A stretch of DNA of 32,000 nt from Pseudoalteromonas tetraodonis (GCF_002310835.1 NZ_CP011041.1:1560001-1592000); one strand, 5' to 3'; shown: positions 5,609 to 10,125, counted from the stretch's first letter. Program-made: numbers and translations. The notes: generated from the sequence alone by a model not told the origin.

Positions 5609-5774
5609 TTAATGAATCATAAGTCGCTTAACTTCTTCTGGCGTCATGGCACTTATCATGAAAATGAATATGAGATGCAATCCACCTCAGGTAGGTGTCC
5701 ACGGTACGTAATGAATACTGATGTACCAACATATATTCAGCAATGTAATTTAAAAATGGGGAACGCGTTTTCAT
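5609..5774 (-). pseudogene. intI: Integron integrase (intI) N-terminal remnant, frameshifted and truncated
   Basis: Minus-strand 5774->5631 reads MKTRSPFLNYIAEYMLVHQYSLRTVDTYLRWIASHIHFHDKCHDARRS*. A shifted frame continues TPEEVKRLMIH* (stop at 5609-5611). The pattern YSLRT..Y..W....I.FH.K.H(P)...EV resembles the N-terminal SAM-like domain of IntI1/IntI4 as I recall them. The catalytic domain is entirely absent. Confidence 0.75.
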
Positions 5775-5794
5775 ATCATCATCAATATTGAAGG

Positions 5795-5810
5795 CTGTAT
5801 AAATATACAG
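5795..5810. promoter_or_regulatory. LexA (SOS) box upstream of the intI remnant
   Basis: CTGTATAAATATACAG matches the gammaproteobacterial CTGT-N8-ACAG consensus. It lies 21 bp upstream of the intI ATG, and its minus-strand reading contains a TATATT -10-like hexamer. Confidence 0.75.
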
Positions 5811-5988
5811 TCTAGTTGTTTTGCTCCCATATTCAAGAAAATGAGCGCTGAGCGCACTTTCTTATTATATTTAGTAGCAAGAAAAAATTTTAGCTGGCAA
5901 TGAGTTAAGTTATTTGTTAAAAAAGTAATTAATAAATATATTAGCGTGACGTTGGCAGAAATATACGCGACGAGCGCACTATAAAATT

Positions 5989-5995
5989 GTTAGGT
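5989..5995 (+). other. attI-like core site (GTTRRRY) at the start of the first cassette
   Basis: GTTAGGT fits GTTRRRY exactly. It lies about 215 bp from the intI start on the cassette side and just before the RBS and ATG of the first cassette ORF. Confidence 0.4.
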
Positions 5996-6017
5996 GTTTC
6001 TCAGGTTTGGAGTTCAA

Positions 6018-6254
6018 ATGGGATTTAAGTTTTGGTTCGTTAGAGCATTAAAAGTATTTCTTGGAGTAGCAGCCTTACTTTTTATAGTTGAGTTGCTTAA
6101 ACAGCACTCAGTTCAAGAAGCATTAATTTTTGCTTGTACTTGGTCATTGATTACAACAGCATTGTTTATATGTTCAAGACTATATCAATCACGTAAAGGT
6201 GTAGAGTGTGCTTTGTGCAATGATATTCCAGACAAAAGTGATAAAAACACCTAA
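6018..6254 (+). CDS. Cassette ORF 1: small two-helix membrane protein, unknown function
   Basis: ATG at 6018 has a GGAG RBS 5 nt upstream (the track's GTG at 5994 lacks one). There are two hydrophobic segments. The TAA stop is fused to the attC TAAC box. Confidence 0.6.
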   Translation: MGFKFWFVRALKVFLGVAALLFIVELLKQHSVQEALIFACTWSLITTALFICSRLYQSRKGVECALCNDIPDKSDKNT

Positions 6255-6349
6255 CAAGAATTTAAAGCGGGACTGCTAACAGTTTGCTCGGTTTCGCTAC
6301 GCTACACATTTTAGCAAACAATTAACAGCCCCTTAAATGGGCGTTATGT
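6249..6349 (+). other. attC recombination site 1 (about 100-bp imperfect palindrome)
   Basis: ACCTAAC (RYYYAAC) ...GTTATGT. The arms pair imperfectly: TAAC/GTTA, ATTTAA/TTAAAT, and GGGACTGCTAACAGTTTGCT against AGCAAACAATTAACAGCCCC with bulges. The overall form resembles Vibrio VCR-type attC sites (TAACAA...GGGACTG...CAGCCCCTTA..GGGCGTTA). Confidence 0.8.
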
Positions 6350-6367
6350 TACTAGATAAGGATATTT

Positions 6368-6634
6368 ATGAAATTAAGCATCGGAGCTTTATTAACACTC
6401 TTTCTAATCTCAGGCTGTACAAGTACATCAATTAAGCCGTTGAAATGGGAATACAAAACTATAAATGTAAATCCATTTAAAAATGGGCTTATTGGTAGAG
6501 AGCTAAGAGAAATCGAAAAGGAATATTCTAATACGCAAAAAGAGCTTCTTTCAAAATATGGTGAAGATGGCTGGGAATTGGTTCATATTGAGGGTAAAAA
6601 CTATATTTTTAAAAGGCCAGTTCAGGTTAATTAA
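6368..6634 (+). CDS. Cassette ORF 2: small lipoprotein, DUF4177-like
   Basis: AAGGA RBS 5 nt upstream. Lipobox LISGCTS. WEYKTI...GEDGWELV resembles the DUF4177 signature as I recall it. Confidence 0.7.
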   Translation: MKLSIGALLTLFLISGCTSTSIKPLKWEYKTINVNPFKNGLIGRELREIEKEYSNTQKELLSKYGEDGWELVHIEGKNYIFKRPVQVN

Positions 6635-6642
6635 GTAACATA

Positions 6643-6647
6643 ACAAG
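6643..6647. repeat. 5-bp direct repeat ACAAG (CTTGT on the transposase strand), junction at the transposase 3' (right) end of the IS
   Basis: Identical pentamers lie at 6643-6647 and 7846-7850 and bracket the IS. CTTGT is the target/duplication reported for IS492 (from memory). Confidence 0.75.
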
Positions 6648-7953: not shown

Positions 7954-7972
7954 TTAGTTTAAAAATAAACTG

Positions 7973-8001
7973 TTGACATAATATGTCATGGTGGTTACTT
8001 T
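7973..8001 (+). promoter_or_regulatory. Possible sigma70 promoter of the YidC-like/GNAT cassette
   Basis: TTGACA (7973-7978), a 17-nt spacer, then TACTTT (7996-8001), about 30 nt upstream of the ATG at 8031. The -10 is weak. Confidence 0.35.
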
Positions 8002-8030
8002 TAATACATAATATTAAAAGGAAAACTAAA

Positions 8031-8681
8031 ATGGAAATTTGGAATTTATTTACTGCTTTTATTGTGCAATTAATCACCTTTTTTACTCAAGAAGTGGGCG
8101 TAAGCCAAGCGGTTGCAATTATTTTGTTTACCGTTATTGGACGATTAGTTTTAATGCCGATTAACCTTGTTGCTATGGTTAACATGGTTAGAAATAAAAA
8201 AGCAATTGCCGCACTAAAACCTGAGCTAGATAGCATAAAGAGCAACTATAAAGACCAGCCCAGTGAAATCGCAAAATTAACTATGGCGCTGTATAAAAAG
8301 CACAACATTAAGTTTATTGATAAAAAAAGTGTGATTAATATGGCAAGCCAAGGGGTATTTGGCCTTGGAACTTTTCAAGCTCTGCAACAAATTGTATTGA
8401 ATAGTAAATTTGCTTGGATTACCAGTATTGCAAAGCCTGATATTGCGATTTCGTTATTAGTGGGGGCTATTACATATTTATCTATGATGATGATGCCAGG
8501 TAGCGCAGAACAAACCAGCACCTTATTGTTCCTAATTCCCGCAATTATTTGTGTGGTTACTCTCGTTAATTTTCCTTCTGCAATTGGTTTGTACTGGGCT
8601 ACATCCAGTAGTACTAGCTTGTTGCAGTCATTATTAGTAAATAAGTATTTTAAAAACCATCAGCCGCAGCATCCTTTATAA
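8031..8681 (+). CDS. Short YidC/Oxa1-family membrane insertase paralogue lacking the periplasmic P1 domain
   Basis: ATG at 8031 has an AAAGGAAAA RBS (the track start at 7983 has none). AIILFTVIGRLVLMP (groove Arg), KPELDSIKSNYKDQPSEIAKLTMALYKKHNI (C1 hairpin) and FPSAIGLYWATSS parallel E. coli YidC core motifs (AIILLTLIVR..., LQPKIQELKEKYGDD..., FPSGLVLYWVVSN, from memory). Confidence 0.8.
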   Translation: MEIWNLFTAFIVQLITFFTQEVGVSQAVAIILFTVIGRLVLMPINLVAMVNMVRNKKAIAALKPELDSIKSNYKDQPSEIAKLTMALYKKHNIKFIDKKSVINMASQGVFGLGTFQALQQIVLNSKFAWITSIAKPDIAISLLVGAITYLSMMMMPGSAEQTSTLLFLIPAIICVVTLVNFPSAIGLYWATSSSTSLLQSLLVNKYFKNHQPQHPL

Positions 8682-8699
8682 AGGTCGCTAAACAAAGGA

Positions 8700-9134
8700 A
8701 TGACGATAATGAATATGTGTTATCAGCCCACAGCCGATTTGATGGCATCGGCATTGTTAACCTACACCAACATGCGTGAATATTATGAGCAGTATGGCGT
8801 TGATTGGCAGCAACATAAAATATATGAACAAATAGTAAACCTTGAAAATTGGGATATTGTGGTAAATGGCGATGTAGTGGGTGTAATGCGCTTGGCTTTC
8901 GATGATAAGGGTTGCTATATACGTGACTTACAAGTAGATGCTGCGTTTCAAAATATGGGTATTGGTGCAGCAGCAATTAATGAGTGTGCTCGTTTAGCAG
9001 TGCTCCGAGGTGCTATGCAACTTAGGCTTCGGGTTTTTAAAATAAGCCCTGCGCACAAGCTTTACACACGTTCAGGTTTCAGCATAGATAAAGAAGACGA
9101 CAGATTTTATTATATGTCTAAAAGCTTAGTTTAA
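8700..9134 (+). CDS. GNAT-family N-acetyltransferase
   Basis: The acetyl-CoA motif A is present (DLQVDAAFQNMGIGAAAINE), and the size is typical of GNATs. The start is more likely the ATG at 8709, given AGGA at 8695-8698. It lies 19 nt after the YidC-like gene. Confidence 0.75.
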   Translation: MTIMNMCYQPTADLMASALLTYTNMREYYEQYGVDWQQHKIYEQIVNLENWDIVVNGDVVGVMRLAFDDKGCYIRDLQVDAAFQNMGIGAAAINECARLAVLRGAMQLRLRVFKISPAHKLYTRSGFSIDKEDDRFYYMSKSLV

Positions 9135-9236
9135 TAACTGTGACTTTTATTTTAAAAATCAATGTTGCTCAGTCACTGTAGATTAATATTCGCTCATTCA
9201 AACTGCTATCCCGACAATTTAATAAAATAGTTATGG
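9133..9236 (+). other. Possible attC site 3
   Basis: TAATAAC ... GTTATGG. The arms pair as TAACT/AGTTA plus TTTTATT/AATAAAA plus AAA/TTT with bulged bases, about 104 bp in total. The sequence is AT-rich, so part of the pairing could be chance. Confidence 0.4.
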
Positions 9237-9243
9237 ATAGATT

Positions 9244-9483
9244 ATGCGCTTTTATACAAACAAAACAGCCACATTGAGTGTTTGCTTTTTATTGCTTGGC
9301 ACAGGTTTTATGCTGATAGAAAACAGTGTGTATCAATATGTTGATCATAATGGTGTTCTACATGAAAGCTTGTTTATGCCCTTGAGCATACTGTGTTTTG
9401 CTGTGGGAGTTCTTTTTGTGGTTAGTTTGTTAGCCCGAAAAGTATTCGGGCTATTTAAAAGTGCTAGGGCAGATGGGCATTAA
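9244..9483 (+). CDS. Cassette ORF: small two-helix membrane protein
   Basis: 79 aa with two long hydrophobic segments. The TAA stop is fused to a TAAC box. The RBS is weak. Confidence 0.5.
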   Translation: MRFYTNKTATLSVCFLLLGTGFMLIENSVYQYVDHNGVLHESLFMPLSILCFAVGVLFVVSLLARKVFGLFKSARADGH

Positions 9484-9495
9484 CCGCTGCTGTTA

Positions 9496-10125
9496 TTACT
9501 CATTATTTAAGTTAGCGGGTTCTAATAAGTTAAATGTCGGTAAGCGCCATTTAAAGCGTACCGACGCCATACGAATTAAATAGCCTACTACTAAACTTGC
9601 AACTACGCTGATATTGTCATCAATGTTGTAGTGGTGCAGTGCTAAGTATAAACAAGCAACAATAAGCGCTACGCTTGCGTAAAGTTCATGATGAAGTACT
9701 AATGGCGCTTGTCGACAAATTAAATCACGCAACAGTCCACCAAATACACCTGTTACTATAGCTGCGACAACACAAATTCCATAGTGCAAACCCATATTTA
9801 GCCCAACTTGGCAGCCAATTATACTAAACGCTGCAAGCCCTAAGGCATCTAGACGCATGAATATGCCTTTAAATTTAACCACCCATTTGGCCAACCAAGT
9901 GGTTACAATACCCGCCACGCATGTGATCAGTAAATATTCTGGGTGTTTAACCCACGTTAACGGGTAATTGCCAAGTAAAATATCGCGTACGCTGCCACCC
10001 CCAATGGCTGTGGCACTGGCTACTAGCATAACCCCAAACCAATCCATGTTTCTGCGCCCAGCGCTGAGTGCACCGGTCATGGCTTCTGCTGTAATTCCGA
10101 TGATGTAAACAATAGTGAGTAGCAT
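9496..10125 (-). CDS. UPF0126 / trimeric intracellular cation channel-like membrane protein (YadS/YicG-like)
   Basis: It has the duplicated GGG(S/L)(V/L)RD motif (GGGSVRDILLG and GGLLRDLI). The C-terminus VRFKWRLPTF is like E. coli YadS IRWHLKLPTF (from memory). Confidence 0.85.
   Translation of the reverse strand: MLLTIVYIIGITAEAMTGALSAGRRNMDWFGVMLVASATAIGGGSVRDILLGNYPLTWVKHPEYLLITCVAGIVTTWLAKWVVKFKGIFMRLDALGLAAFSIIGCQVGLNMGLHYGICVVAAIVTGVFGGLLRDLICRQAPLVLHHELYASVALIVACLYLALHHYNIDDNISVVASLVVGYLIRMASVRFKWRLPTFNLLEPANLNNE

Follow-up and report, generated by a model that had tools for sequence, protein, structure and literature searches.

A probable remnant of a sedentary chromosomal integron, with an IS492-like element in one attC site, downstream of a GH13 gene in Pseudoalteromonas tetraodonis

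What separates two carbohydrate loci on the chromosome of Pseudoalteromonas tetraodonis? The question arises in a stretch of 32,000 nt (GCF_002310835.1, NZ_CP011041.1:1560001-1592000; hereafter the window, whose numbering is used throughout), in which a first-pass annotation made from the sequence alone had proposed a decayed chromosomal integron with a truncated integrase gene (intI) and three or four gene cassettes. According to our analysis, the segment 5608-7953 is very probably the remnant of a sedentary chromosomal integron that this Pseudoalteromonas clade carries just downstream of a GH13 gene. In this remnant the integrase is gone, and the LexA operator, the attI site and two cassettes survive. 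What remains is one attC site that, like attI, looks competent for recombination, one interrupted attC site and a dead insertion sequence (IS). The coordinates of all features are collected in Table 1.

Evidence comes from the same chromosomal site in relatives, for which 36 species-level loci were retrieved by GH13 (L001 is RW-H-Ap-1, a sister species; L002 is P. rhizosphaerae and L004 is P. ostreae). Among the Pseudoalteromonas relatives, intI is convergent with GH13 at the identical site and occurs in five states. The gene is intact in L002 and L032 (TIGR02249, 508.5 and 451.9 bits against a cut-off of 265). A frameshift breaks it in L003 and L005, in L006 it is interrupted and its N-terminal part damaged, L001 and L004 have the same stump as the window, and L007 and L008 have lost it entirely but retain the attI region. 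The relatives' intI is followed by long arrays of one and the same attC repeat family. These intact and broken genes, together with their attC arrays, bear out the call of a decayed chromosomal integron with a truncated intI. In the outgroups Arsukibacterium and Rheinheimera (L009, L012, L013 and L019), GH13 lies directly beside the LacI-type gene that comes after YadS in the window, with a gap of 158 nt in L009, and the YadS gene is missing at this site. The adjacency of GH13 and the LacI-type gene supports the insertion of the integron between functionally related loci, as had been proposed.

Within the window, the 48-codon minus-strand open reading frame (ORF) 5774->5631 that had been read as the start of intI is present. 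Together with its tail it matched the integrase N-terminal SAM-like domain PF13495 in Pfam (30.9 bits, cut-off 27). In the comparison of integron-integrase with XerC/D profiles that the first-pass annotation had suggested, NCBIfam yielded matches to TIGR02249 (E 6.6e-6) and NF011946 (E 1e-3) alone, both of them integron-integrase models; the XerC/D models gave none at E<=0.1. Over 60 residues the stump has 75% identity with the intact 322-aa IntI of L057 and L058, both of which carry the source annotation integron integrase, and at the nucleotide level 5653-5775 is 89% identical over 123 nt to codons 1-41 of the intact gene. The frame and its profile matches agree with a truncated intI that has lost its catalytic domain. 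The tail had been taken for a simple frameshifted continuation, which appears to be a misreading: 5628-5647 aligns with codons 108-114 of intact intI (18/20 nt), and 10 of the 12 residues of the tail peptide MTPEEVKRLMIH (5611-5646) equal those of intact IntI at 108-119, a better fit than codons 47-58. The tail is therefore more likely to be a second surviving fragment of intI. A match to codons 108-119 implies two deletions, one of approximately codons 42-107 and one from codon 120 to past the stop, by which the stump was probably produced. The adjoining 5560-5610 is the counterpart of the spacer that follows intI in L003 and L006. Only about 55 N-terminal codons are left and the catalytic domain is gone, and the platform is predicted to be unable to recombine cassettes on its own.

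Upstream of the stump, the intI promoter region carries a predicted LexA box, CTGTATAAATATACAG, which is the only CTGT-N8-ACAG in the 32 kb. At least one such match was present in 38% of shuffled sequences, so the pattern alone proves little; it gains weight because a LexA-type box also lies just upstream of intI in eight relatives (L001, L002, L003, L005, L006, L032, L057 and L058). The box had been noted before and is indeed present, as is the GTTAGGT core at 5989, which is of the GTTRRRY type, lies beside intI where the first cassette begins and marks the place where homology with L001 ends (5992). The segment 5927-5995 matched the attC model weakly (12.3 bits, E 0.2). Both cassettes are inferred to be transcribed from a promoter in the attI region, for which the sole candidate would be TTGTTA-17-TATATT at 5914-5942, a weak consensus match (9/12).

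The recombination sites were then compared with those of the relatives. L003 carries an array of ~100-nt repeats to which 6249-6349 of the window is 84-88% identical. An alignment of 12 such sequences gave a consensus hairpin of 28 pairs, with compensatory changes in 16 of them. Covariance models R1, R2 and R3 were built from 12, 19 and 45 sites, R1 being too narrow and hence broadened twice; the regular expression AACAAG...GTT, which has many chance matches in coding DNA, was used solely to seed the alignment. All 45 family members recovered in the relatives' arrays lie on the cassette strand. The attC-like palindrome that had been proposed at 6249-6349, here named attC1, is an intact member of this clade's ~100-nt repeat family and matched all three models. 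Its bottom strand folds into one long hairpin (z -2.2) in which R'' and R' pair, AAG and GGC face each other as an unpaired spacer and the R''-L'' arm has a bulge. Cores, palindrome, spacer and covariation are all found in attC1, and only partly in the second site, attC2. Direct reading also confirmed the proposed fusion of an ORF stop codon to the TAAC box at 6252-6254.

Cassettes are cut at G|TT, and therefore the first six bases of a cassette should complement the R'' box of its own attC. In the relatives, this boundary rule was exact for 18 of 20 consecutive pairs (78/80 variable positions), a result reached by 0 of 10,000 permutations. Both cassettes of the window follow it exactly: GTTAGGT (5989) is complemented by ACCTAAC (6249), and GTTATGT (6343-6349) by ACATAAC (6638), the R'' box of attC2. 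The protein of cassette 1 had no family match in profile searches and by eye appears to have hydrophobic stretches; that of cassette 2 seems, again by eye, to have an N-terminus resembling a lipoprotein signal (LISGC).

These results leave little room for an account without any integron, in which the ORF would derive from a tyrosine recombinase of the phage or Xer type, and terminators or repetitive extragenic palindrome (REP)-like repeats of a generic genomic island would account for the palindromes. The stump does span only the SAM-like domain, common to other tyrosine recombinases, and the generic LexA pattern is statistically not rare. However, only integron-integrase models match the stump in NCBIfam, the intact proteins with 75% identity to it are annotated as integron integrases, TIGR02249-positive IntI proteins occupy the orthologous positions in relatives, and the repeats covary, leave a central spacer unpaired and obey the cassette boundary rule. 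We regard this account as refuted by the synteny and attC evidence, and give it almost no credence.

The second site of the integron remnant, attC2, is split. A split attC had been proposed at 6638-6647 plus 7851-7953 and holds as 6638-6648 plus 7851-7953, with the difference that the intervening 1,202 bp are an IS492-like element, whose identity had been missed. When this element is removed, the conserved ends of the family are kept, a 2-nt insertion precedes the TT of R' and the 3' arm is altered; the assignment relies on the conserved ends and the boundary match of R''. At the junctions, the sequence reads ACATAACAAG(T) and then the IS, after which attC resumes with TCGTTAAAGCAGGAC... and finishes with ...GCGAGTTGATT. 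The IS is flanked by the direct repeat ACAAG(T), or CTTGT in its own orientation, and the insertion point ...TAACAAG^ is the R'' box plus three bases.

The inserted element encodes a DEDD transposase (7625->6672, 317 codons) with an in-frame TGA at 7065-7067. The NF033542 model that it matches is named 'IS110 family RNA-guided transposase'; the protein shares 97% identity with intact 317-aa copies and 89% with a P. translucida protein listed in UniRef as 'Transposase (IS492)'. A non-coding region of 225 nt lies upstream of the transposase gene (tnp; 7626-7850) and contains TAACAAGT (7710-7717, minus strand), an 8-nt match complementary to the target; 23 nt lie downstream. The DEDD transposase, the non-coding region upstream of tnp and the duplicated core at the junctions are those of the IS492 branch of the IS110 family. 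Membership in the IS1111-attC group was considered and rejected, with only 23 nt downstream of tnp versus 225 nt upstream. Every exact copy of the broken transposase ORF in public data lies at this same locus, which indicates that the nonsense mutation is real and the copy fixed; the ends of the IS were for this reason defined from intact relatives. Judged from its reading frame, this copy is dead through the nonsense mutation. The element struck attC2 at ...TAACAAG^ and was later disabled, and, being antisense to the cassettes, it probably blocks read-through.

To the right of attC2, how far the integron extends depends on the block that begins at 7973, which comprises the YidC-like, GNAT and DUF3955 genes and the convergent YadS gene, with the YidC-like gene probably under its own promoter. 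The block is conserved from ~7952 against L001 or from 7973 against five strains, and everything to its left differs. With L001 its identity is 92%, and with the five strains (L037, L040, L041, L043 and L044) 99-100%, the shared sequence running only from 7973 rightwards; in these five a TonB-dependent receptor gene and a peptidase gene lie left of the block, with more cassettes further out. In the proposal of three or four cassettes, the YidC-like and GNAT genes form a third cassette with an attC at 9133-9236, and DUF3955 a fourth with a short attC at 9481-9522 abutting YadS. The block does start within ~20 nt of the R' box of attC2, and its three ORFs, none of them large, share the strand of the cassettes. 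A cassette starting GTTGATT would be expected to have AATCAAC as its R'' box, and AATCAAT is found at 9157-9163. Moreover, the 216-aa YidC-like gene is cassette-borne in other Pseudoalteromonas arrays: in L073/L074 it directly follows an attC of 93-95 bits, and 10 nt past its stop stands ATATAAC, the exact complement of the cassette start GTTATAT, at the base of a hairpin with z -2.35.

Against this, neither proposed site matched any of the three models at E<=10 with filters off, and the clade-specific models placed no attC at the 3' end of the YidC-like/GNAT pair or of DUF3955. The two sites fold no better than shuffles (z +0.48 for 9133-9236 and -0.17 for 9481-9522), and their cores are mutated in L001: TAATGAC and TTTATGG instead of TAATAAC and GTTATGG at the first, and TTACTG and GGGCTC, with AAC and GTT changed, at the second. 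In addition, the near identity of the block to strains with unrelated arrays is that of a fixed flank, not of mobile cassettes. We therefore consider a third and fourth cassette improbable; only two cassettes are demonstrable. From its sequence, the block is probably a fixed flank derived from old cassettes, and we infer that the YidC-like gene was originally a cassette, as perhaps were its neighbours, and that the attC sites have since decayed. In Colwellia and Shewanella, the YidC-like gene is solitary and in unrelated contexts.

If intI is dead, how did the cassettes come to differ between neighbours? L001 shares the stump of the window (86% nucleotide identity over 5560-5992, in a single alignment) and none of its cassettes. 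Homology between the two stops at 5992, inside the GTTA of attI, and restarts at 7952; against L007 and L008 it stops at 5992-5996. Past the attI break L001 reads GTTATGC, and its own first cassette there terminates in GCATAAC. The same stump with wholly different cassettes implies that cassette content kept changing after intI had died, and points to cassette exchange without a resident integrase in sister species. The agent of this turnover is most likely an integrase supplied in trans by another integron. The site as a whole documents a case of chromosomal integron death, with intI intact, frameshifted, reduced to a stump or deleted at one site in nine related species.

Several points weigh against this account of the locus. 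The array may have been swapped by homologous recombination with foreign DNA, which would make a trans-acting integrase unnecessary, but the break exactly at the GTTA of attI favours site-specific recombination over homologous replacement. For the cassette promoter there is just a consensus match, of a kind no more frequent than in shuffles. Once the IS is taken out, attC2 has a fold of z -2.05 but does not adopt the canonical single hairpin. The attC models were built from the clade's own repeats. Finally, the putative non-family attC behind the YidC-like gene of L073, a candidate positive control, was missed by R3 and gave no R2 match at E<=0.01, and thus the silence of the models at 9133-9236 and 9481-9522 is not absolute.

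Given the position of the IS in attC2, we examined nine places with an intact relative of this element (P0020; L052-L060, IS at 1772-2977 in each), a sample biased towards long contigs. On one side of the IS, ...TAACAAG was present in 9/9 places, and in seven of them the other side is the remainder of an attC of the family (27.5-86.3 bits, IS end included), with the IS at the same attC position and in the same orientation. The transposase is always antisense to the cassettes in these places, and in two of the nine a single cassette separates the IS from an intact intI. Both here and in 7/9 intact copies, the target CTTGTTA corresponds on the opposite strand to TAACAAG, the R'' box of an attC plus spacer. 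The same heptamer occurs in 27 of the 45 collected attC sites; of the other 18, four are IS-chimeric with ATACAAG, and most of the rest have TAACAAA or TAACAAT. The non-coding region of the IS is almost invariant between the sampled copies and that of the window, and the few differences cluster around a TAACAAG that is complementary to the target CTTGTTA. As side observations, several of the sampled arrays contain two IS110-family transposase genes, and the left end of the IS, CTTGTAT, mimics an R'' box, so that a chimeric site scores up to 86 bits on the attC model.

These data are open to a joint reading, to which we give an even chance. In its first part, IS492-type elements would be dedicated hunters of attC sites in Pseudoalteromonas: bridge-RNA-guided elements whose conserved upstream non-coding RNA carries a guide matching TAACAAG, for which cassette arrays serve as natural landing pads. 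Insertion and precise excision might then reversibly silence an attC site and the transcription of downstream cassettes. In its second, separate part, arrays whose intI died before speciation would still exchange cassettes through integrases supplied in trans. The sampled places link the classic phase-variation element IS492 to attC sites; if this link holds, a second and independent lineage of RNA-guided insertion sequences would be added to those that exploit integron recombination sites as parasites. No paper linking IS492 to attC was found in the literature searched.

As for known systems, the locus belongs to a familiar kind: sedentary chromosomal integrons on the way to CALIN-like remnants, CALINs being clusters of attC sites without an integrase (Cury et al. 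2016, PMC4889954). It is real and fairly ordinary, and it leaves the general picture of integron biology unchanged. Like such decayed integrons and CALINs, it has lost or pseudogenised its intI and retains attC-bounded cassettes of unknown function, a LexA box upstream of intI and attC sites that are homogeneous within the clade. Its one intact attC and a second that is IS-split and degenerate, beside an intI stump, would place it below the CALIN threshold of two attC sites. The pseudogene screen of IntegronFinder searches with a C-terminal IntI profile and single attC sites are discarded (PMC4889954), whereas the pseudogene here retains only N-terminal codons. Judged from these published rules, the remnant would probably go unreported, and if such remnants are likely to be missed, counts of former integrons may be underestimates. 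Annotations of integron integrases are common in Pseudoalteromonas, and a published supplement (PMC7858055) records CALINs on chromids of the genus; its table of chromid integrons and CALINs does not include SM9913.

Most novel is the targeting of attC sites by the IS492 lineage. The IS here is 1,202 bp long with a flanking 5-bp repeat of CTTGT, and IS492 itself is reportedly also 1,202 bp, duplicates CTTGT and is specific for 5'-CTTGTTA-3' (Bartlett and Silverman 1989; Perkins-Balding et al. 1999; Higgins et al. 2009). The element resembles IS492 of Pseudoalteromonas atlantica in its transposase, given the UniRef match above; unlike classical IS492, whose site is in the eps locus, the present copy lies in an attC and is dead with an in-frame TGA. 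Its position recalls the IS1111-attC group reported by Tetu and Holmes in 2008 and by Post and Hall in 2009. Members of that group (ISKpn4, ISPst6 and ISPa25) are DEDD-transposase elements inserted orientation-specifically near the R'' end of attC (PMC11187229), and the IS here shares both the type of transposase and the place near R''. The target of ISPa25 is CTAACAAGTCG^CTCAAGG (PMC13604230), and the site here, ACATAACAAG^TCGTTAAAG, is a few bases away. A non-coding region upstream of tnp is typical of IS110 elements and one downstream of IS1111 elements (PMC11187229). In contrast to the IS1111-attC group, the IS here has its long non-coding region upstream of tnp, its transposase groups with the short (317-aa) IS492 branch, and its crossover lies within ACAAG, directly after the R'' box and not six bases further in.

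Table 1 Features of the integron remnant and its flanks in the window
Feature	Coordinates	Strand	Evidence or remarks
GH13 alpha-amylase-family gene, left chromosomal flank	3810..5522	+	PF00128, E 9.7e-102
Bidirectional terminator between GH13 and intI stump	5529-5572		terminator-like hairpin, 20-bp stem
intI stump	5608..5774	-	codons 1-41 (5653-5774), then piece 5611-5646, stop TAA 5608-5610
LexA (SOS) box	5795..5810	.	intI promoter region, 20 nt upstream of ATG
attI region, core GTTAGGT (5989-5995)	5811..5995	+	L001 homology ends at 5992
Cassette 1 ORF, 78 aa from ATG (86 aa from GTG 5994)	6018..6254	+	78-aa gene in public assemblies
attC1, R'' ACCTAAC, R' GTTATGT	6249..6349	+	98.7, 92.1, 90.1 bits (three models)
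Cassette 2 ORF, 88 aa, DUF4177 / Sp36 family	6368..6634	+	PF13783 E 6.8e-7; NF053529 E 3.9e-7
attC2 5' part, R'' ACATAAC plus AAGT, cut off by IS	6638..6648	+	alignment to attC family
IS492-like IS110-family insertion sequence, 1,202 bp	6649..7850	-	PF01548 plus PF02371; NF033542
attC2 3' part, degenerate, R' GTTGATT (7947-7953)	7851..7953	+	family alignment; L001 homology restarts 7952
Short YidC/Oxa1-like insertase module, 216-aa ORF 8031-8681	7973..8681	+	PF02096 E 3.5e-25; TIGR03592 87.4 bits
GNAT acetyltransferase gene, 18 nt downstream of YidC-like gene	8700..9134	+	PF00583 E 1.2e-10
DUF3955 small membrane protein gene	9244..9483	+	PF13127 E 1e-7
YadS/YicG-type (PF03458) membrane protein gene, right flank	9496..10125	-	PF03458 E 1.8e-44
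LacI-type regulator, next after YadS	10417-11436		neighbour annotation

The window is 100% identical to the Pseudoalteromonas assembly GCA_007991235.1 and 99.99% identical over 7.7 kb to chromosome I of Pseudoalteromonas sp. SM9913 (CP001796.1), and many isolates and metagenome contigs have the identical gene arrangement at the locus. On the left, a GH15 gene stands beside GH13; on the right, the order beyond YadS is a LacI-type regulator, glucokinase, a second LacI, edd, eda and gap. The terminator between GH13 and the stump attracts weak false matches: the attC models give it 14-15 bits (E 0.05-0.25), and small RNA families of Rfam match it as well. Over 5000-10500, Rfam otherwise yielded nothing of relevance at E<=10, with no attC or bridge-RNA family among the matches.

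The short YidC/Oxa1-like gene has a patchy distribution across Pseudoalteromonas, Colwellia, Shewanella and Thalassotalea. Its promoter contains the palindrome GACATAATATGTC (7975-7987 in the window), which is always found in the promoter of the 216-aa gene, in one copy here and in tandem elsewhere, with three copies in L073 (6913-6985) and two in Shewanella L071 (6944-6985). By its placement, the palindrome looks like an operator for some regulator. The locus also differs greatly at the strain level: in L037, L040, L041 and L043 (12154-20630), ~1 kb of AT-rich non-coding DNA lies left of the position equivalent to 7973, followed by the TonB-dependent receptor, an S9/S15 peptidase and cassettes with a protein-kinase-domain ORF and a DUF2971 ORF. 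A 33.5-bit attC was present in L037, L040 and L043, the three of these loci that were scanned.

Three IntI lineages that are mutually only 59-62% identical occupy the one site downstream of GH13, namely those of L002 and L003, of L005, L006 and L032, and of the window, L001 and L004 (with L057 and L058), in species whose GH13 is 86-94% identical to the protein of the window. The contrast points either to a replaced integron platform or to an intI that has diverged very fast. In the array region of L001 (13233-15315), a 324-aa ORF has a weak match, below the cut-off, to an IS200-like Y1 transposase (PF01797, E 8.7e-4), and three copies of the short motif ACACCCATCTT(T)AATTTT are present; ORF and motifs may represent a REP-associated transposase and its repeats, in the place of the expected attC sites. 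In L060 (2960-4720), from another Pseudoalteromonas genome, a YadS homologue (94.5% identical over the 91 residues compared) has on its promoter side a LexA box, an attI-like region, a first cassette and an IS492-split attC, and a CSD/Excalibur gene occupies the expected position of intI, a layout in which the integron-YadS arrangement is inverted or rearranged relative to the window.

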